In this document: piece by piece, positions 14,304-22,705 of the stretch
Layout: each line of letters starts with the position of its first letter
How positions within the stretch are numbered: the first letter of the stretch is position 1
Source: Planctomycetota bacterium
Lineage (GTDB): Bacteria > Planctomycetota > JAJSAM01 > JAJVHW01
Reading direction: 5' to 3'
Assembly: GCA_965248445.1 (NCBI GenBank)
Contig: CBDFJG010000004.1
Span: forward strand, 1,952,001 to 2,016,000
DNA length: 64,000 bases
Position numbers and translations under genes: made by a program
Notes under the pieces: generated by a model
Told to the model about the DNA's origin: nothing
What the model saw: the letters and a program-made list of their open reading frames with translations, nothing else
The model's database searches: none

Positions 14304-17300
14304 CTAGAATGTTCCCTGGTTGATGCGACTCAAATACGTTGCCTGCCATTGGCTACCGTTCGTGAGTCTCTTCCGCATTTCCCAGACAGAGATGGGCCTT
14401 GAGCATCCGCAAGAACAGTAGATCGGATCGAAGATATCGTAGAAATCCTCGATATCCTCGTCTGACGCGCCCGCTGGGTGCTTCGAGTTATTCTCCTTCG
14501 ACTTGTTCGCCTTGATCATCGCCTGCAAGCGCGCGCGAGTATTCTTGGTCACCTGCGCGTGGCTGTCGGGTTTCGCCTTCTTGTTGTTCTTGTGATGCTC
14601 GTCTTCGTGAAGTCCTGCCACGAATACGTCCCAGAACGCCTCGCCGAAGCAGGGGCAGAAGGCGTCGGGATCTGGCATGTCCAGGCGAATCTTGTTCGTG
14701 GTCGGATCCGTCTCGCCGGCGGCGGCGCCTCCATGCCCCCCAGATGGCGGCGACTCCGGCCCGTACCCGGACGTGTCGTCGGCGCTTCCGTCGTCGAGTC
14801 CATCGTCACCCATCTGCTTGATCAGACCGTCAATCACTTTCATAGCCTTCTTTGCCGCCTGGTCATTGTCTGCCTGAGACGCATCGTCCAGCCCCATTGC
14901 GTCTGTACGACGCACGGGGGAATTCGAAGCGTACATGTACAGGCTCGGTCCATCCGCATATCCGGTCGCGTCACGCTGCACGAACCTCCGCAACTCCGCC
15001 GAGTACGCCCGCGCCCGGTAGTGGTACAATCCGCTCTCCTCGTCCATCCGCCTCCCGGTGAACATCCACGGGTTTTCGATCTGCGATGAGGTCACTGAGC
15101 CGCCGTTGATGTCCGAGATCGCGACCGTCCCGTACGGGTCGTAGCTGTAGCTCTCGACCACAGCCTCGTCGGGATCCGTGACGTGCGTGACCGACCCCAC
15201 GAGCTGCCCGTGGTAGTAGAAGCGCTTGAGCTCCGTGGTGTTGCTGTCGCTGTCCACGTCGGCGACGTCCGGCGCTTCCATCACCGCCGGATCGTCGATC
15301 TTGTCACTGTAGGCGTACAGGCGAAGCAGATCGGTTCCGTCGTACTCCTCAATCACGCTGTTGCCGTCATAGATGTAGCGCGACGTGTCGCTGCCGACGG
15401 TCTTCTTCGTGCGTCGGCCGCGGCCGAGCGCGTCGTACTTGTACTCGCCGAGCACGGCAGAGTCGCTCTTGCGCGTCACCTTGAGGAGGTGGTTGTGGGC
15501 GTCGTAGGCGTAGGTGTTGGTGCCGTCGTCTGTGAGGTTGCCGCTGGCGTCGTAGGTGTGCGTCGTGCCGCCGACGGCCGTGTACTCGTTGACGGCGTTC
15601 GACGTGTAGCTGGTCGTCGTCGCACTTCCGCCGTAGGGCGTCACCACGTAGGACGTCAGGTTGAAGACATCGTCCATGTTGTAATCGCGCTTCTCGTCGT
15701 ACGTCTCGGTGCCGGGGTTGGCGAGTTCGTTCGCCGGATCCGCCACCGCCATCAGGGTCTTCGTCAGACGGTTCGCCTGGTCGTAGGTGTACAGTTCGCC
15801 GGCGCCTGACTCGTGGCCTCGTGCCTCGTAGAGGGGGTTCGAGTTCGCGTCCCACGCGTAGTCGAACGACGCGAACTCCGGGCTGCTCGAATCCTCGTGC
15901 GCGATCTCGACGATGCGGCGGTAGCCGTCGTAGCCGACCGTCGTGGTCGTGCCGTTCCCGAAGGTGACCGTGTCCCGTCGGTGGTGCCGGCCGATCACGC
16001 CGAAGGACACGATCGAGGTGTCCGTCTTGTCGTCCACCTCCATCAGGCAGCAGACCTCGTCGTAGGTCCGCCGCGCCTCGAACGTTGAGGGGTATGTCAC
16101 TCTGGTCTTGTTGGACTCCGCGTCCCACGTGTACGTGACGGTCTTCGCCTCGCTGCCCAGTGGATTGCTGCCCTGCTTCTCGGTCAGGACGCGCGAGAGC
16201 GAGTCGTATGTGAGCTGCACGATGGCGTCGTTGTCTTTGGCCTCGGTCAGACGGTTGAGGCCGTCGTAGGCGAAGTCCTCGTCGGTGTCGCCGAGGACGC
16301 CAGTGCCCTTGGTGATGTCGCGGGCGATCAGACGGTCGAGATCGTCGAAGTCCTGGTCGAACTCGGTGCCGTTCTGATCGATGATCGTCGTTGCGTTGCC
16401 GTTCGCATCGAGACTGAGCGTGACCACGCCGGAGTCGGCGTAGGTGACTTCCTCAAGGCGGTTCATGAGGTCGTAGTCGTACTGCGTCTCGTTCCCCGCG
16501 TCGTCGCGATAGACGATCACGTTGTTGTGGATGTCGAAGTCCCACTCGATGTCAAGGGACGCGCCCGACCCCAGATCGACGCTCTTCTTCGTGATGCGTG
16601 CCAGGCCGTCCGAGAACAACTCCGTGTCGGTGCCATCCGGCTCGATCTCCACTCTCGCCACGCTGAGCGCGTCGAGCTTCCACTCCGTCACGAGACTGTT
16701 CGCGGAGTTCGCGGCGTCGATGCGCTTCTGCGTCCTCCTTCGGTTCAAGGCGTCGTAAGTGAACTCCGTCTCGTAGACCTCGCTGACCGTCGTGCCGTGC
16801 AGGAACTCAGTCTCCTTGATCTCCGTGACGTTCCCGTTCGCATCGAGCGTGTACTCCTCCAGGTTGCCGATGGCATCGGTGTCCTTCGTGAGCCGGCCCG
16901 CGCCGTCGTAGACACGAGTCGTGTCGTATCCCCGCCGGTCGTTGAGCACCGTGGTGAGGCCGCGCCTGTCGAGTGTCCTCGTCCGATACAACCAGGTGTC
17001 CGGCGTTCCTTGGAGCACCGCCTCGCTCTGCCAGAGCCGGTTGATCTCGTCGTAGTTGCGCTTCTCGTGGGCGAGGAGGTCGTCTGCCGACGGGTCGTTG
17101 TCCTGCCAGCTCTTGCGTTCGGTCAGGTTGTTCGCCTTGTCGTACGCGAGCTGCGTGTAATGGCCCAACGCGTTGGTGCCTTGGGTGGGCCGATCGAAGA
17201 GGTCGAACATCGCTGTCGAACTCTTGCCGCGAGGGTTCGTCACGGAGGTCCGATTGCGGTTCCCGTCGTAATCGATGGTCGTCGTGGCGGCGATGTGTCC

Positions 17301-19502
17301 CGTTCCGGGGTCGGCGACGCGCTTCTGCAGTAAGTCGCGCTCGTCGAACGTGAACTCGACACGTACGTCACCGCGCTGCATGGCGGACCGGTTGTCGTTC
17401 GGGTCGTACTCGAACGTCGTGGTGCGAGTCGTCGTGGCGGTGATGTCCTCGACGGCGGACGCTAGGTCGTTCTCGACGGTGTACGTGTAACTCGCCTCCC
17501 ACCACTGGGGAGTGGAGCTCCAGATGCCCAAGTGATCGATGTTCTTGATCTCGCGCTTGGTGACATTGAGGTTGCCGTCGTAGGTCAACTTCGTGATGTA
17601 GCCCAGAGCGGTGGGGGCGGCAACCTGCGTGACGTTGCCGTACCGCTCGACCGTCAGGTTGGTCGTGTTCCCGCGGGGATCCGTGATCGCATTGACGTCA
17701 CCCCAGTTCTCGTAAGCGATGGTGGTCAGGAGTCCCAGTCCGCCTTGATCGACGGTCTTCGTCGACAGGAGAGCCTTCGTGTTGCCGGTTGCGAAGTACG
17801 TGTACGCCGTCACGTACCCCTCACCGTCGGTGAAGGAAGCCACTGTGCCGTCCGTGTTGAACGTGTAGCTGTTCGTGATGGTCACGTTCGGCGTGAGGTT
17901 CGTGATCGTCGGGAACGTGATCCTCGTCGGCTGGCCCGCCGCGTTCAGGGTGTACGTCGTCGTGTTCCCTCGACCGTCCGTGTAGCTCGTGACGCCGTAG
18001 TTCTTGGTCGAGTCATAGGCCCAAGTGTTGACGATGTCGTTCGTCGCACTGTCGGCCGCCGTCATGTCCTCCTTGTGGCGCCGCTTGGTTGCGAGCTTCG
18101 CCGTGTTGAGCGTGTATTTGAGCCCGTTGCCACGCGGGTACGTCACGGTGAGGAGATAGCCGGCGGAGTCGTGCGCCCACTTGGTCGTGTAGTCACCCTC
18201 GCCGGTCCGCACGCCGCGGTTCGTCTCCTCGACGACCTGCGTGGGAGTGAGCGTCGAGGCGCTGTAGGTCCACACCTCACGGTTGCCGGCGCGGTCGGTC
18301 ACGGTCGTCTGGTTCGTGAGCGGCGTGTACGCCAGCGTCATCGTGTCCGTGCCGCCGATCGTCTGCACGGTGACGCGGTCCGTGCCGTCGTACTGATTAT
18401 TGATGTGCGAATTCCCGCGGCCGTCGATCTCCGCGATCATGTTGCCGTTCAGCGCCGCGGTGGCGGAGCCGTTGATGTAGAGGAACTGCGTCCAGACGCC
18501 GCCGGGGAAGCTCGTCGTCGGCGGCCCCTCGATGCGCATGAGCTGCGTCTTGATGTTGTAGTGAAGTGTCCACGCGGCTCCATCGGCCGTCGTAATCGAC
18601 ATCAGGCGCCCGGTCGCCGGGTAGTACGCCAGCGTGTGCGCCAGCCCGCGGCTGTCGCCGATCATCGTGATCTGGCCGGCGGGGTTGCGCGCGTAGTTCG
18701 TCGTGTTACCGAACGCGTCCGCGACCGACGTGAGCCAGCCGTTCGAGTAGGTCCACGTGCCGCCCTCGGGGAGCGTTCGTACGTAGCCGCCAGGGGTCGC
18801 CGTGAGGGTGTCCCGCAGGCCGACCGGTGTCGTGTAACCGACGCCGTTGAACAGGTACGTGCTGAGGACGCCTGTCTCCTTGAGGATCGCGACGTCGCCG
18901 GCGCCGTTGACGGTGTAGCTAGAATCGAGCACGCTGCCCATGCCGTACCCGACTGAGCTGTCGAACGCGCTCTGCGAGTTGTAGGTCAGGGCGATGCCGG
19001 ATTCGCTCGTGCTGGCCACCATCATCGTGGGGGCGTTCGAGACCGAGCAGCACTCCGGCATCAGGATCATCGGGCGGACGCCGCGGGATCGGCCGATCGT
19101 GTAACGCCGCGCGAACGCGCCGTTGTGAATGGCCAAGCTGCGCCCCACGAACGCCGACTGCCCCGAGGGCGCAAAGGGCTCCGCCGTCATGAAACCGGCG
19201 AGCGTCGGGACCGTGGCTCCGTCGTGCACACCCGGGCCACCGTCGAGCGGGGACGGGTCGATGAGATCGAGCAAGGTGTCGAAGTCCGAGTCGGGGTTGT
19301 TGGGATCGGTGCCCGTCTCGAACACCTCCTTGAAGTCGTTCCAGCCATCGCCGTCGCTGTCGGCGGCTGCCGGGTTGGTGCCGAGGATCGTGCCCTCGAA
19401 GACGTCGTCCAGTCCGTCGCCGTCGGTGTCCGCGGCGAACGCCGCTGTCGTCCAACCGAAGAGCAGCACGGCAGCCAGCGAGAACGCGTGCTTCGTCCGC
19501 AT
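14304..19502 (-). CDS. Sec-signal RHS/YD-repeat protein with N-terminal DxDxDG (TSP3-like) Ca-binding repeats and C-terminal HExxH domain
   Basis: Start MRTKHAFSLAAV at 19502 (TGATG-coupled); DTDGDGLDD/DSDGDGWND; YD repeats; RHS core FTGRRMDEESGLYHYRARAY...NSPVRRTDAMGL; LHEDEHH at ~14592-14612. Confidence 0.92.
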   Translation of the reverse strand: MRTKHAFSLAAVLLFGWTTAAFAADTDGDGLDDVFEGTILGTNPAAADSDGDGWNDFKEVFETGTDPNNPDSDFDTLLDLIDPSPLDGGPGVHDGATVPTLAGFMTAEPFAPSGQSAFVGRSLAIHNGAFARRYTIGRSRGVRPMILMPECCSVSNAPTMMVASTSESGIALTYNSQSAFDSSVGYGMGSVLDSSYTVNGAGDVAILKETGVLSTYLFNGVGYTTPVGLRDTLTATPGGYVRTLPEGGTWTYSNGWLTSVADAFGNTTNYARNPAGQITMIGDSRGLAHTLAYYPATGRLMSITTADGAAWTLHYNIKTQLMRIEGPPTTSFPGGVWTQFLYINGSATAALNGNMIAEIDGRGNSHINNQYDGTDRVTVQTIGGTDTMTLAYTPLTNQTTVTDRAGNREVWTYSASTLTPTQVVEETNRGVRTGEGDYTTKWAHDSAGYLLTVTYPRGNGLKYTLNTAKLATKRRHKEDMTAADSATNDIVNTWAYDSTKNYGVTSYTDGRGNTTTYTLNAAGQPTRITFPTITNLTPNVTITNSYTFNTDGTVASFTDGEGYVTAYTYFATGNTKALLSTKTVDQGGLGLLTTIAYENWGDVNAITDPRGNTTNLTVERYGNVTQVAAPTALGYITKLTYDGNLNVTKREIKNIDHLGIWSSTPQWWEASYTYTVENDLASAVEDITATTTRTTTFEYDPNDNRSAMQRGDVRVEFTFDERDLLQKRVADPGTGHIAATTTIDYDGNRNRTSVTNPRGKSSTAMFDLFDRPTQGTNALGHYTQLAYDKANNLTERKSWQDNDPSADDLLAHEKRNYDEINRLWQSEAVLQGTPDTWLYRTRTLDRRGLTTVLNDRRGYDTTRVYDGAGRLTKDTDAIGNLEEYTLDANGNVTEIKETEFLHGTTVSEVYETEFTYDALNRRRTQKRIDAANSANSLVTEWKLDALSVARVEIEPDGTDTELFSDGLARITKKSVDLGSGASLDIEWDFDIHNNVIVYRDDAGNETQYDYDLMNRLEEVTYADSGVVTLSLDANGNATTIIDQNGTEFDQDFDDLDRLIARDITKGTGVLGDTDEDFAYDGLNRLTEAKDNDAIVQLTYDSLSRVLTEKQGSNPLGSEAKTVTYTWDAESNKTRVTYPSTFEARRTYDEVCCLMEVDDKTDTSIVSFGVIGRHHRRDTVTFGNGTTTTVGYDGYRRIVEIAHEDSSSPEFASFDYAWDANSNPLYEARGHESGAGELYTYDQANRLTKTLMAVADPANELANPGTETYDEKRDYNMDDVFNLTSYVVTPYGGSATTTSYTSNAVNEYTAVGGTTHTYDASGNLTDDGTNTYAYDAHNHLLKVTRKSDSAVLGEYKYDALGRGRRTKKTVGSDTSRYIYDGNSVIEEYDGTDLLRLYAYSDKIDDPAVMEAPDVADVDSDSNTTELKRFYYHGQLVGSVTHVTDPDEAVVESYSYDPYGTVAISDINGGSVTSSQIENPWMFTGRRMDEESGLYHYRARAYSAELRRFVQRDATGYADGPSLYMYASNSPVRRTDAMGLDDASQADNDQAAKKAMKVIDGLIKQMGDDGLDDGSADDTSGYGPESPPSGGHGGAAAGETDPTTNKIRLDMPDPDAFCPCFGEAFWDVFVAGLHEDEHHKNNKKAKPDSHAQVTKNTRARLQAMIKANKSKENNSKHPAGASDEDIEDFYDIFDPIYCSCGCSRPISVWEMRKRLTNGSQWQATYLSRINQGTF

Positions 19503-20002
19503 CAGCGGCCCCCTTCCCCGAACAGGCCACCGCGGATCGCGAGCGCCATGCCCTGGAGACGCTGGTTCGTGCCCGCCTTCGCGTTCACGTACGAGCTCAC
19601 GTCCTTCCACTTCTTGCTGTCGGACTTCTCTGCGCGACACCAGGCAGCGAGCGCGGCGCACCGCACGCCGTCGGTCCGCTTGGTGTCCTCGTAGATGATC
19701 TTCAGCTTCGCGCGAGCGCCTGAGTAGTCGCCGCGACCGATCGTGGCGATCGCCATCGCGGCCAGCTTGTCGTCCTTGCTCGCCGCCATGGCAGTAAGCG
19801 CGCTCCGAGACGCGCCGGTGCCGATGCCCAGAAGCTCCTCCATCAGCGCCGCGCGACGCGAGACACCGATCGGCGACTCGCAGATCGTTCGGAGGCGTGT
19901 GACCCTCTCGTTGCTCGGGCCAGAGTGCGCCGTGGCTGACAGCGCCACGGCCACCAGGGCAAGAAGTCCGAACGCGAGATTGCGTGAACGAGACCGGGTC
20001 AT
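19502..20002 (-). CDS. small secreted HEAT-like protein translationally coupled to RHS
   Basis: GGAGG RBS, signal peptide, helical repeats (GVRCAALAAW); stop overlaps RHS ATG. Confidence 0.75.
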   Translation of the reverse strand: MTRSRSRNLAFGLLALVAVALSATAHSGPSNERVTRLRTICESPIGVSRRAALMEELLGIGTGASRSALTAMAASKDDKLAAMAIATIGRGDYSGARAKLKIIYEDTKRTDGVRCAALAAWCRAEKSDSKKWKDVSSYVNAKAGTNQRLQGMALAIRGGLFGEGGR

Positions 20003-20029
20003 CGGAAGTTCCTCCATTTGCTGCGCTCG

Positions 20030-20574
20030 AGGTCCCGCAGGACCTCGGGCACGGACTCGCGCACCCGCCGGTGGAAGCTCCTCGCAGAGCACGACGGCAG
20101 TCGATGCCCCAGCGACTTGACGGCGCCGCGTGCGGCATTCACGAGTTTCGTGCGCGCAGAGACCACGCGCTCCCGCGCGCGCAGCAGCGCCATGTCGGCC
20201 TGCATGGACTCGCCCCGGTGGACCACCGGATGCAGCAGGCCGGGATGCCCCGCACCGAGCTGCGCCAGCACCAGTGCGTCGCGCCGATCCGTCTTCTTCG
20301 GCGAGTCCCAGATCGCTCGCAGCCGTCGCGCGTCCGCCACGATCACGTCGTGGCCGTGGGACGCGACCAGCCGGCTGATCCACGGAGAGTGCGTCCCGCT
20401 CTCCATCACCACCTTGGACCGCTCCGTCTGCTCGAAGAACTTGCCGAGCGCCTTGCGTGTCGCCCCGACCCGTCCCTCCCCGACGACCTCCCCCGTCTTG
20501 CGGTCGAGCATGCAGACATGCACCACGCGATCACCCAGATCCATCCCGATCACCAAGCGTGTACCCTTCGCCAT
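20030..20574 (-). pseudogene. IS110-family recombinase, 3'-truncated (RuvC-like DEDD domain and part of coiled coil only)
   Basis: IGMDLG, VMESG, KTDRRDA motifs; GAGGAGG RBS; no C-terminal Tnp domain. Confidence 0.88.
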
Positions 20575-20664
20575 AGCCGGTTCCTCCTCGGGCGCAGAGC
20601 CCGTTTGTGACTCGGAAAACCGCTACGGGTTACACCGAGGCAGGGACCGGCCTTCTTGTATGAC

Positions 20665-20880
20665 GTCCACTCATGCCCGCGACCTACGGTGGACAGAGAT
20701 CGACGAGAGCCGGGAGAGGGTCGCCGCGGCCTTCACGAGGCGCAGTCCTCGGAGATGAGATTGGCGCCCTCGACCGGCGACCCACGCTCGGACGGGATCC
20801 TGAGGCGCGCAGACGCGCGTCCTCGCATGAACAAGGATGAGTACGGTCGCCGGCTCCGAGGCTCCCGGTCCTCCTCGTCG
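20665..20880 (+). ncRNA. IS110 bridge RNA (predicted)
   Basis: Target loop: LTG CGGCCTTC 20727-20734, hairpin CGAGG/CCTCG, RTG GAGATGAG 20752-20759. Donor loop closed by perfect stem CCGGCGACC 20774-20782/GGTCGCCGG 20845-20853: LDG GACGGGATC 20791-20799, RDG ACAAG 20831-20835. RNA ends are approximate. Confidence 0.85.
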
Positions 20881-20898
20881 CATGACAGGAGGTGCACG

Positions 20899-22098
20899 AT
20901 GCGCTACGCGGGGATAGACATCGCTTCGAAGAAGCACGTCGTGGCGGTGATGGACGAGGACGAAGAGATCCTGGTGCGGCCCACCGCCTTCGGTGAGGAC
21001 GCACAGGGCTACGAGGAGCTCTTCGAGTTGCTCGGCGTCCCTCGAGACGTGCTCGTGGCCTTGGAGGCGACCGGGCACTACTGGCGCAACTTGGCGGCGG
21101 AGCTTCTCTCGCGCGGTTTCGCCATGGTGCTGATCAATCCGCTGCGGACCCACCGCTTCGCCGGCGAGGACCTGCAGCGGACCAAGACCGATGCCATCGA
21201 CGCCCTCGGGCTCGCCCGGTTCGCTCGCCAGAAACGCCCGGAGCCCACGCGGCTGCCCGACTCCGGCACCGAGGAACTGCGCGAGCTCGTCAGACTCAGG
21301 GATCGCGTGGTCCAGGACTTTGGAGACCGGGTCCGCCGGCTTCACCGCTTGGTGGACCTGGGTTTCCCGGAGTTCACACGCCACGTCCGCACCCTCGACA
21401 GCGAACTCGCCACGGCGCTGCTCAACCGCCATCCCACCGCGCAGGCCTTTGTGGGTGTCTCGGTCAAGCGACTCGCCGCGCTCCGTTACGACGGACGTCA
21501 CCGAGTCGGGCGGCAGCTTGCCCAAGACCTGGTCCGTGCAGCCAAGTCGTCCGTGGGCCGCCACCACGCCGAGGCCTATCGCACTCAGGTCCGGTACGCC
21601 TGCGAGGATCTGGACTTGCTGCGCCGGCGCCTTCGCGACTTGGAGAAGCTGATCGGGGGAACCCTGGAGCACCACGAGGTCGGCAAGCTCCTCACGACCA
21701 TCGACGGCATCGGGCCACAGACCGCCGCGCGGCTCGTCGCGGAGCTGGGCGACATCACTCGTTTCCGCGACGCCAAGGCGCTGGCGTCATACATCGGGGT
21801 CGTCCCGGCACTCAAGCAGTCCGGACGCAACCAGGGCCAACGCGCCGCCATCACCCGCATCGGGCACGCCCGGCTGCGCAGGGCCCTGTGGATGCCCGTC
21901 CTGACCGCGGTGCGCAGGAACCCCTGGCTGCGCGCCTTCTACGAACGGCTTCGGTCCCAGGGCAAGCTCCCGAAGGTCGCCCTCGTCGCGTCCATGCGAA
22001 AGCTCCTGGTCGCCGTCCACTGGGTGGCTCGAAACAAACAGCCCTTCGTCCCCCGGCCCACACCCGTGGCCACGTCGGCCACGCAGGTGCCCGCATGA
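20899..22098 (+). CDS. IS110-family bridge recombinase (intact, 399 aa)
   Basis: AGGAGGT RBS; GID, LEATG, KTDAIDA (DEDD); GIGPQTAA; catalytic QSG. Confidence 0.95.
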   Translation: MRYAGIDIASKKHVVAVMDEDEEILVRPTAFGEDAQGYEELFELLGVPRDVLVALEATGHYWRNLAAELLSRGFAMVLINPLRTHRFAGEDLQRTKTDAIDALGLARFARQKRPEPTRLPDSGTEELRELVRLRDRVVQDFGDRVRRLHRLVDLGFPEFTRHVRTLDSELATALLNRHPTAQAFVGVSVKRLAALRYDGRHRVGRQLAQDLVRAAKSSVGRHHAEAYRTQVRYACEDLDLLRRRLRDLEKLIGGTLEHHEVGKLLTTIDGIGPQTAARLVAELGDITRFRDAKALASYIGVVPALKQSGRNQGQRAAITRIGHARLRRALWMPVLTAVRRNPWLRAFYERLRSQGKLPKVALVASMRKLLVAVHWVARNKQPFVPRPTPVATSATQVPA

Positions 22099-22480
22099 GC
22101 CACGAGTCTTCCGAGCGAACTCGCGCGCGCTCCGCCGCCCCGGATTCATGCCCGAGCCGACAGGCGAAGGCGTCGCACCACCCAACCTGTCCTCGCGGCC
22201 CGCCGAGCGCGGTCCCCGCGCGCAGGCGAGGCGGGCAGCGCCAACAACGCTCTAAGAACCTTGGTCGAGAAGACGGGATCTCATCTCATCACCAACGCCG
22301 AGGACCGAGCGCGACGCGTCCCGCGGCGCCACGATCGATTTCGGGGGACTCCTCGCGACACAGGTCTGTTATCCCGGGTACGCGAGCCCGTGACTCCGGG
22401 GAGTACTACGGCGGTGCCAGTTGGGTCCCGCGTACATCCTGCCCGGCAGAGGGCCGGCTACCACGAGAGGCGGTGCGGAG

Positions 22481-22705
22481 ATGAGCGGAAGATGGATCGG
22501 AGCCTTGCTGTGCGTCGCGACGATGGCTCTTCTGGCGGGTTGCCAGTGCACGGGTTCATCCACCAAGTCGGACCATCCGACGCGGACGGAACACCCGAAG
22601 GCTGCGCAGGAGCACCCGGCGGGGACCGAGCACCCGGCGGGGACCGAGCACCCCAAGAAGTCGGAGCATCCCAAGAAGTCGGAGCACCCGGACCACCCGA
22701 AGTGA
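22481..22705 (+). CDS. small lipoprotein with tandem EHP repeats
   Basis: Lipobox LAGC; (x3)EHP repeats encoded by 18-bp tandem repeats; GTGA-coupled to transglutaminase. Confidence 0.75.
   Translation: MSGRWIGALLCVATMALLAGCQCTGSSTKSDHPTRTEHPKAAQEHPAGTEHPAGTEHPKKSEHPKKSEHPDHPK
22609..22700 (+). repeat. 18-bp coding tandem repeats
   Basis: GAGCACCCGGCGGGGACC x2 then GAGCAYCCCAAGAAGTCG x2. Confidence 0.85.

Follow-up and report, generated by a model that had tools for sequence, protein, structure and literature searches.

The 64,000-nt window analysed here, a stretch of the genome of a Planctomycetota bacterium, carries a 1625-bp insertion sequence (IS), designated IS-A, lodged inside the tip of a second insertion sequence, IS-B. 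IS-A is a genuine, intact element of the IS110 group with a predicted guide RNA that matches its own insertion site, and the reading we favour, at a probability of roughly 0.88, is that it works as the bridge-RNA element IS621 does, with the left sub-terminal inverted repeat of IS-B as its natural target. An IS621-type bridge-RNA system was the central claim of the original prediction, made from the letters of the window alone, and it is supported by the domains and catalytic columns of the recombinase, by covariation within a two-loop RNA and between its guides and both the flanks and the ends of related elements, by boundaries shared among copies and by uninterrupted sites.

IS-A occupies positions 20657-22281 of the forward strand, on which all of its features lie, one copy of the core dinucleotide being counted. 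Its left junction reads CGGCCTT/CT/TGTAT, with the left target half CGGCCTT at 20648-20654, the core CT at 20655-20656 and TGTAT at 20657-61; the right junction reads ACGGGAT/CT/CATCTC, with the left donor half ACGGGAT at 22273-79, the core CT at 22280-22281 and the right target half CATCTC at 22282-87. The latter continues into the outermost bases of the IS-B left tip (together CATCTCATCA, 22282-22291), a limit placed with the help of relatives and of the flanks of the copies, which diverge beyond it. Between the junctions lie a non-coding left end of 242 nt (20657-20898), which begins TGTATGAC and encodes the predicted bridge RNA, the gene for a 399-residue recombinase (20899-22098) and a right end (22099-22279). 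The insertion target is CGGCCTTCTCATCTC, with the halves CGGCCTT-CT-CATCTC. The genome (four contigs, C1 to C4; 5.4 Mb) holds four copies of IS-A, two intact and two broken by other ISs. The boundaries of other copies had been named as a test of the prediction, and the junctions proved identical in 4/4, with CT as the core at both. Uninterrupted sites carry a single CT and show no further target duplication. Since these uninterrupted IS-B tips are natural empty sites, the boundaries of IS-A are fixed to the base, up to a shared TCT.

Four short strings within the left end match these junctions. CGGCCTTC at 20727-34, GAGATGAG at 20752-59, GACGGGATC at 20791-99 and ACAAG at 20831-35 had all been pointed out at the outset, and each of them, like both junctions, is in its place. 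The first requires an adjustment: although the match is real, homology with relatives sets the left target guide at 9 nt (CGGCCTTCA, 20727-20735) and not at the 8 nt of 20727-34, so that 7/7 non-core bases and 8/9 bases overall agree with the target, the last, core-facing base being A against T (CA versus CT); guide bases 20727-33 are identical to the left target half, itself part of the left-end inverted repeat of IS-B. The right target guide GAGATGAG (20752-20759) is the reverse complement of CTCATCTC at 22280-87 (8/8); its TGAG is conserved across the subfamily and its GAGA is a variable extension. It is followed by AT (20760-20761), present in 62 of 72 aligned sequences and complementary to donor positions 6-7 (AT), to which the role of a handshake guide may be assigned after IS621 (PMC11208158). 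In the donor loop, the left donor guide ACGGGATCC (20792-20800) matches the right end ACGGGATCT at 22273-81, ACGGGATC likewise agreeing with the right end, and the right donor guide ACAAG, the reverse complement of CTTGT at 20655-59, is followed by the handshake guide GA (20831-20837 together).

We considered whether the matches might be fortuitous and the structured 5' region a mere leader of the recombinase mRNA. Taken singly they are not exceptional: when the 242-nt left end was shuffled 5000 times with its dinucleotides preserved, they were reached 20, 113, 59 and 450 times, which is 0.4-2.3% of shuffles for the single 8-mers and 9% for the 5-mer ACAAG; the minimum free energy (MFE) fold of the single sequence, at -114.7 kcal/mol, likewise has a z-score of merely -2.25, with 3 of 200 shuffles as good. 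Jointly, in contrast, the first three matches never arose in the 5000 shuffles, nor in any of 1274 other stretches of that length taken from the window, and they sit in precisely those loops that covary with the flanks in relatives. Coincidence is a negligible prospect, and the guide covariation described below refutes it for practical purposes.

The MFE fold had no clear target loop, and a consensus fold was therefore used instead. RNAalifold, applied to an alignment of 55 sequences, returned 39 pairs. Compensatory changes occur in 23 of these, and all 39 are formed by the window sequence; the two-loop fold claimed originally is thus absent in clean form from the single sequence and present in the consensus. 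A 49-pair structure that includes the outer stems was paired in 91.8% of cells across the 55 sequences, versus 38.7-48.6% when the partner strand was slid, with 33 pairs changed on both sides, a result reached in 0 of 500 shuffles. It comprises a target-binding stem-loop at 20720-20767 (outer stem 20720-26/20762-67, inner hairpin 20737-50), a junction stem whose 5' strand CCTCG (20768-20772) pairs with CGAGG (20857-61) in 98.9% of cells, and a donor-binding stem-loop at 20774-20853 (stems 20774-82/20845-53 and 20786-90/20838-42, inner hairpin 20802-24), in which the helix at alignment columns 85-93 contains 8 pairs altered on both sides. Both loops are enclosed by outer stems, with the 5' strand at 20701-20716 and the 3' strand at 20862-20880. 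The enclosing stem had been described as extra; it exists, but it is the norm of the subfamily, outer helix 1 being paired in 66.6% and outer helix 2 in 86.8% of cells, with both-sided changes in 7 and 5 pairs, respectively. The RNA was scored by these pair counts and by an nhmmer profile built without the window sequence, in place of a covariance model: the profile of 54 relatives found exactly four matches in the genome, all of them the IS-A copies (E 7.9e-40), the next hit having an E-value of 1.9. By eye, CCTCCT in the 3' strand of the outer stem (20870-75) is complementary to the Shine-Dalgarno-like AGGAGG (20888-93) ahead of the recombinase start, and the folding of that stem could therefore compete with ribosome access to the site.

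The relatives examined were the best 80 of 557 confirmed loci, themselves drawn from 595 candidate stretches; the 300 nt upstream of the start codon were aligned for the 71 loci that include the gene start, and loop positions were fixed by homology for all guide tests. This subfamily (loci L026-L105) consists of IS110 transposases of 390-397 residues from metagenome-assembled genomes of Myxococcota, Planctomycetota, Proteobacteria and Binatia, with 51-75% protein identity to the IS-A recombinase among the fetched loci and up to 93%, many at 70-80%, in the protein database. There, 3950 of 8000 scored proteins had E <= 1e-30, mostly on contigs about 1.5 kb long; judged by these matches, the subfamily is very populous. 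The left ends of the relatives have in common the start CTTGTAT, and a stem GGGTCGCC/GGCGCCC that encloses a 5' loop of variable sequence, an inner hairpin, and a 3' loop in which four variable bases precede TGAG-AT; the second stem-loop carries (A/G)ACGGTATC(C/T) on its 5' side and ACAAG on its 3' side. IS-A shares with them the RNA fold, the CTTGTAT start, the right end ACGGNATCT, the TGAG of the right guide and a right guide of 7-8 nt. It differs in having ACGGGAT in guide and right end, where 39 of 54 relatives have ACGGTAT, in its target, and in the distance from stop codon to right end, which is about 180 nt (22099-22260) in IS-A as opposed to 5-20 nt in most relatives; measured from the start codon, the right end lies at 1374 nt in IS-A and at 1187-1210 nt in most relatives.

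The variable loop positions track the insertion sites of these elements. For 30 distinct right target guides, taken from 48 usable loci and with four variable bases each, 95 of the 120 positions agreed with the right flank; shuffled pairings gave 36.5 ± 5.0, and none of 10000 scored as high. Likewise, the seven non-core bases of 38 distinct left target loops (44 usable loci, best of three registers) matched the left flank at 169 of 266 positions, against 126.4 ± 5.5 on shuffling (0 of 10000 as high). The contiguous match of the right guide, counted from the core, was 7 nt in 18 of the 30 distinct guides, 8 nt in 6, 10 nt in 1 and shorter in 5; the long 8-nt right-target match remarked upon in the original prediction is accordingly correct in length and unremarkable in its subfamily. 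On the donor side, a right-end pattern blind to the guide gave exactly one candidate in 54 of 72 loci and none in 18, and the left donor guide was identical to the right-end 7-mer in 51 of those 54. Among the rows with non-majority donor variants, guide and end agreed in 12 of 15: ACGGAAT (5), ACGGCAT (5), ACGGAAC (1) and the ACGGGAT of the window. The first base of the donor-loop handshake guide paired with target position 7 in 37 of 45 cases, plus 2 wobbles, versus 21.8 on shuffling; in the window this pair is a G.T wobble. As far as sequence comparison can speak, the covariation shows that the subfamily chooses its insertion sites by these loops.

The recombinase encoded between the two ends has both domains of the family (PF01548, E 2.6e-37; PF02371, E 3.2e-29), and its nearest matches among PDB chains were the ISCro4 transposase (E 2.9e-40) and the IS621 transposase (E 4e-37), with two aligned stretches each. 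In an alignment to the IS621 chain 8wt6_A, residues D7, E56, D98, D101 and S308 fall in the GID, EAT, TDxxDA and SG columns, the third motif reading TDAIDA in IS-A. These columns hold IS621 residues D11, E60, D102, D105 and S241, which have catalytic roles (PMC11208158), and the DEDD and serine residues first noted as intact are so.

What, then, is the DNA into which IS-A has inserted? IS-A splits IS-B, of which the inner left end and the first 181 codons (start at 20574) occupy 20032-20654 of the minus strand, the element being cut off near 20032. The IS-B transposase, encoded on the strand opposite to IS-A, has 347 residues and both domains (PF02371 and PF01548), and relatives of it (38-69% identity) were found in 14 genomes besides this one among the 151 genomes of the phylum searched. 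A version of (A)GATGGGATGAGAAGGCCGG stands about 90-160 nt before the start codon in 14/14 relative loci examined, with unrelated DNA before the motif; ATGAGAAGGCC is exact in 9 of the 14, and locus L125, from the same family as the genome studied, has the exact variant of the window, TGATGAGATGAGAAGGCCGG, uninterrupted. Downstream of the gene, an inverted copy, GGCCTTCTCAT, follows CTTGAC-N6 in 12 of 13 relatives examined and in the C1 copy of IS-B. Left and right repeat variants covary among the relatives (GGTC/GACC, GGCT/AGCC, GTGG/CCAC and GGGGAGG/CCTCCCC). IS-B hence has an 11-bp sub-terminal inverted repeat, ATGAGAAGGCC/GGCCTTCTCAT, and a non-coding right end that we estimate from coordinates at about 290 nt after the stop codon. 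Published criteria for the IS1111 group are a DEDD transposase, sub-terminal inverted repeats of 7-17 bp and a long non-coding region downstream of the gene (PMC11208160, PMC11187229); on the strength of its repeats and its downstream non-coding region we place IS-B in that group.

These comparisons revise one aspect of the prediction. The target CGGCCTT-CT-CATCTC was given correctly as a sequence, but its nature had been missed: it is not ordinary chromosome and, by comparison with the relatives, is the left sub-terminal inverted repeat of IS-B. That the 24-nt motif is native target DNA could be ruled out, as it recurs at the same distance upstream of IS-B relatives elsewhere and has a matching inverted copy downstream. 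One solo 24-nt left tip of IS-B does lie in an intergenic region, at C4:1674404-27 (locus L008:2905-2928), unoccupied by IS-A. Adjoining it is a 1380-bp stretch that duplicates, at 99.6% identity, DNA from the right flank of the C1 copy and belongs to a beta-helix protein gene; the DNA to the left of the tip has no IS-B homology beyond 14 nt.

The right repeat of IS-B forms a near-target on the other strand, AGGCCTT-CT-CATGGA, with 6/7 bases of the left half, the core and CAT, then three mismatches. It was empty at all three places where it occurs (C1:586102, C2:855576 and C3:295664), whereas all four left repeats attached to an IS-B were occupied. Discrimination between the left repeat and its inverted counterpart may lie in the extended right target guide. 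That IS-A is specialised to home on the left repeat, an RNA-guided IS that parasitises or silences another member of its own wider family, is a tentative proposal, to which we would give slightly less than even odds.

IS-B is seen also at L011:1344-2662 and in the C1 and C3 copies. The latter two are 98.9% alike and differ in two patches near the right end, of 9 nt and 2 nt (C1:586000-586085 and C3:482965-483049), and the C3 copy is without the right inverted repeat; the patches may represent reprogrammed guides or a rearranged end. When guides of IS-B itself were sought in the right end, in the patches that differ between C1 and C3, no consistent pairing was found. In the window, the outer tip of IS-B abuts the motif CACCAACGCC (22290-22299), as it does on C3 and in the sediment metagenome run X5. 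The motif occurs 42 times in the genome against about 10 expected, around half of the time as (T/C)CATGCACCAACGCC after an AGGAGG-like stretch. It resembles a conserved gene start (MHQR...) shared by a family of paralogues, and it may be the target of IS-B itself.

How many times IS-A has arrived at this site was assessed from the copies. All four sit in the same position and orientation, 12 nt from the IS-B tip, with the 5' region of the IS-B gene, on the other strand, as left flank and right flanks that are alike for 12-20 nt only. The window copy is 100% identical to that at C3:478470-480094 throughout its 1625 bp; a 1043-bp IS1595-family element interrupts the copy at C4:85662, and the C1 copy is broken by the same element and by an abundant 1.5-kb IS. 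An IS-B::IS-A composite might have been copied as a unit, whether by the IS-B machinery or by segmental duplication, or IS-A might have been homogenised later by gene conversion. Several observations are in keeping with this: IS-A and IS-B always occur together (4/4 copies of each, tblastn locating IS-B at four places only, each adjoining IS-A), the outer 12 nt of IS-B are still present at the tip, IS-B copies are 98.9-99.2% alike within each lineage, the sediment metagenome X6 contains a variant, about 95% identical to IS-A, that is likewise flanked on its left by IS-B-type sequence, and the genome is rich in IS-mediated duplication. However, the IS-B parts fall into two lineages only 78-83% alike, whereas the IS-A parts are 99-100% identical across them, so that IS-A must have arrived at exactly this base at least twice, independently, and the guide-flank covariation in relatives points to site choice by the loops. 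We regard copying as a unit as quite improbable for the set as a whole; it lowers the count of insertion events and does not change the mechanism proposed for IS-A. The X6 variant, like a sequence in run X5 where the IS-A right end and the IS-B tip abut a new CCAACGCC flank, may stem from close kin of this organism and gives no independent support. A further candidate, IS-B plus IS-A as one element with a second CT-TGT end on the far side of IS-B, was rejected: that flank matches the left target guide in register at only 3/7 bases, and the C3 copy lacks that end.

By analogy with IS621, the steps of transposition may be outlined as follows. Excision would join ACGGGAT-CT to TGTAT in a circle, the ends matching the donor loop, and the junction would bring the -35-like TTGGTC (22261-66) to 17 nt from the -10-like TATGAC (20659-64), rebuilding a promoter for the RNA; TTGAC or TTGCT is fixed at the first of these spots in relatives, and no sigma-70-like site was found in the integrated state. 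The left end would then be transcribed into a bridge RNA with two internal loops that binds the recombinase. Its target loop (20727-35 and 20752-59) would pair with both strands of CGGCCTT-CT-CATCTC in the IS-B repeat and its donor loop (20792-800 and 20831-35) with the joined circle ends ACGGGAT-CT-TGTAT, upon which a tetramer of the DEDD/serine recombinase, acting through Ser308 and the DEDD site, would exchange strands at the CT core. Only excision with end-joining, itself deduced from the match of the ends to the donor loop, and the site preference find support in the present analysis; the later steps are taken over from the IS621 papers, and the RNA, the circle, promoter rebuilding and catalysis are presumed by analogy with that work.

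A number of observations weigh against operation in the manner of IS621. The promoter hexamers are weak, TTGGTC matching the Escherichia coli consensus at 3/6 and TATGAC at 4/6 positions. A 20-mer of the circle junction, allowed up to three mismatches, was absent from the assembled genome, and contigs of the metagenomes X1 and X2 (possibly the source sample) and X5 and X6 (other sediments) contained no joints, although contigs drop rare forms; what they did contain was a 1675-nt repeat unitig corresponding to 20617-22291, with loose ends at the points where the copies begin to differ in their flanks. In an Rfam scan of 19800-22600 (E up to 10) no bridge-RNA model scored, the only two matches, Ms_AS-4 (20.6 bits against a gathering threshold of 50) and sul1 (16.2 against 36.2), lying elsewhere and being unrelated. 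The left target guide ends towards the core in CA, not CU, as it likewise does in some relatives (L065 and L074-76). The A of the target-loop handshake guide can also pair with target position 7 (T), and in IS621 the pairing of a handshake guide with its own cognate DNA blocked strand exchange in vitro (pre-handshake bridge RNA), a donor-loop mutant with such pairing showing reduced recombination in E. coli (PMC11208158). Finally, since IS-A lies inside IS-B, some copies may be composite copies, and the data demand only two independent events.

Some of these points could mean that IS-A is a recent but now inactive fossil, its anatomy intact and its activity stalled, for example because the guide ends in CA, the junction promoter is weak or the handshake base can pair with its own target. 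Such an interpretation would fit the small number of copies, two of the four being broken by other ISs, the emptiness of the fully permissive solo target at C4:1674404-27, which has the same variant as the occupied C1 site, and the failure to find a circle junction in the genome or a joint in the contigs, with the proviso on rare forms already made for contigs and applying equally to assemblies. It sits less well with two copies identical to the last of 1625 bp and an open frame of 399 codons, with the preservation of all 39 consensus pairs and of every guide, and with the presence of the CA end in relatives too. We consider inactivity unlikely and retain a working, IS621-like IS-A as the preferred reading.

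Set beside IS621 itself (Durrant et al. 2024, PMC11208160; Hiraizumi et al. 2024, PMC11208158), IS-A likewise has a DEDD plus serine recombinase and, encoded in its left end ahead of the gene, a predicted bridge RNA. Both systems have a target loop with a 9-nt left guide and a right guide that includes the core, as well as a donor loop, handshake guides and CT as the core; in both, a hexamer resembling a -35 box lies in the right end and one resembling a -10 box in the left end, and the two would meet in a circle. Even the donors are close: ACGGGAT-CT-TGTAT is identical at 12 of 14 positions to the IS621 donor ACAGTATCTTGTAT, a string that the original prediction had already given and that lies within the IS621 donor DNA oligonucleotide of PMC13396178; it is absent from the main text of PMC11208160. 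The proteins are distant, aligning at E 4e-37 in two stretches, with 399 residues in IS-A versus 328 in the PDB chain, so that IS-A is a distant relative of IS621 and not IS621. The right target guide pairs with 8 nt as opposed to 4 in IS621, longer right guides having been described in some orthologues (Durrant et al., PMC11208160).

The two elements differ also in their targets. IS621 targets repetitive extragenic palindromic (REP) elements, and IS-A an IS end. In this respect IS-A resembles two cases known to us by title: IS1383 is said to integrate into the inverted repeats of IS1384, and IS4321/IS5075, IS1111-family elements by title, reportedly target the terminal repeats of Tn21-family transposons. 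All are IS110-family elements whose specific target is an inverted repeat of another mobile element. As far as titles tell, IS-A is unlike them in that here an IS110-group element targets a relative within its own wider family, at the sub-terminal repeat of an IS1111-group IS. A search of titles and the beginnings of abstracts found no paper on nested or IS-targeting bridge-RNA elements, and the supplements of Durrant et al. on orthologue targets may hold such cases. Covariance models predict bridge RNAs in 85.7% of IS110s (Durrant et al., PMC11208160). IS-A belongs to a very large and already described family; its only unusual trait is its nesting inside the tip of another element, and IS-on-IS targeting is a modest curiosity, as IS110-family targeting of mobile-element ends is already in print. 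A search of 40 related genomes found no near-identical copy of IS-A and turned up one 69% relative (genome G037, same contig as L068).

IS-A is a further, well-documented natural case in a family that has been described and catalogued since 2024. It could serve as a clean test case, being a high-GC orthologue with a right guide of 8 nt and a left guide whose core-facing base is naturally A. The left and right repeats of IS-B, nearly identical as sites, form a natural pair of which only the left is used, and comparing them could gauge the share of the extended guide in specificity. More generally, the conserved tips of IS1111-group elements can be landing pads for IS110-group elements.

Other mobile elements have left their marks on the same loci. 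The 1043-bp IS1595-family element (L011:3926-4968, L011:300-1350 and C1:582968-584008) encodes a 316-residue transposase (PF12762 and PF12760) and shows 8-bp overlaps at its insertion sites; it breaks the two IS-A copies at positions equivalent to 21912-19 and 21318-25 of the window and also abuts the IS-B right end. The abundant IS, 1.49 kb long (L008:1-1492; 426-residue DDE transposase, PF13701), is present in about 85 copies in the genome at 99.4-99.9% identity, indicating a very recent expansion; one lies inside the C1 IS-A, and another separates IS-A from the IS-B gene on C3. Lastly, window positions 18000-20018 recur, inverted and 100% identical over 2019 bp, at C4:110847-112865; this duplicate ends 14 nt from the IS-B cut-off and covers the 5' part of a giant RHS/YD-repeat open reading frame (14304-20138, minus strand).

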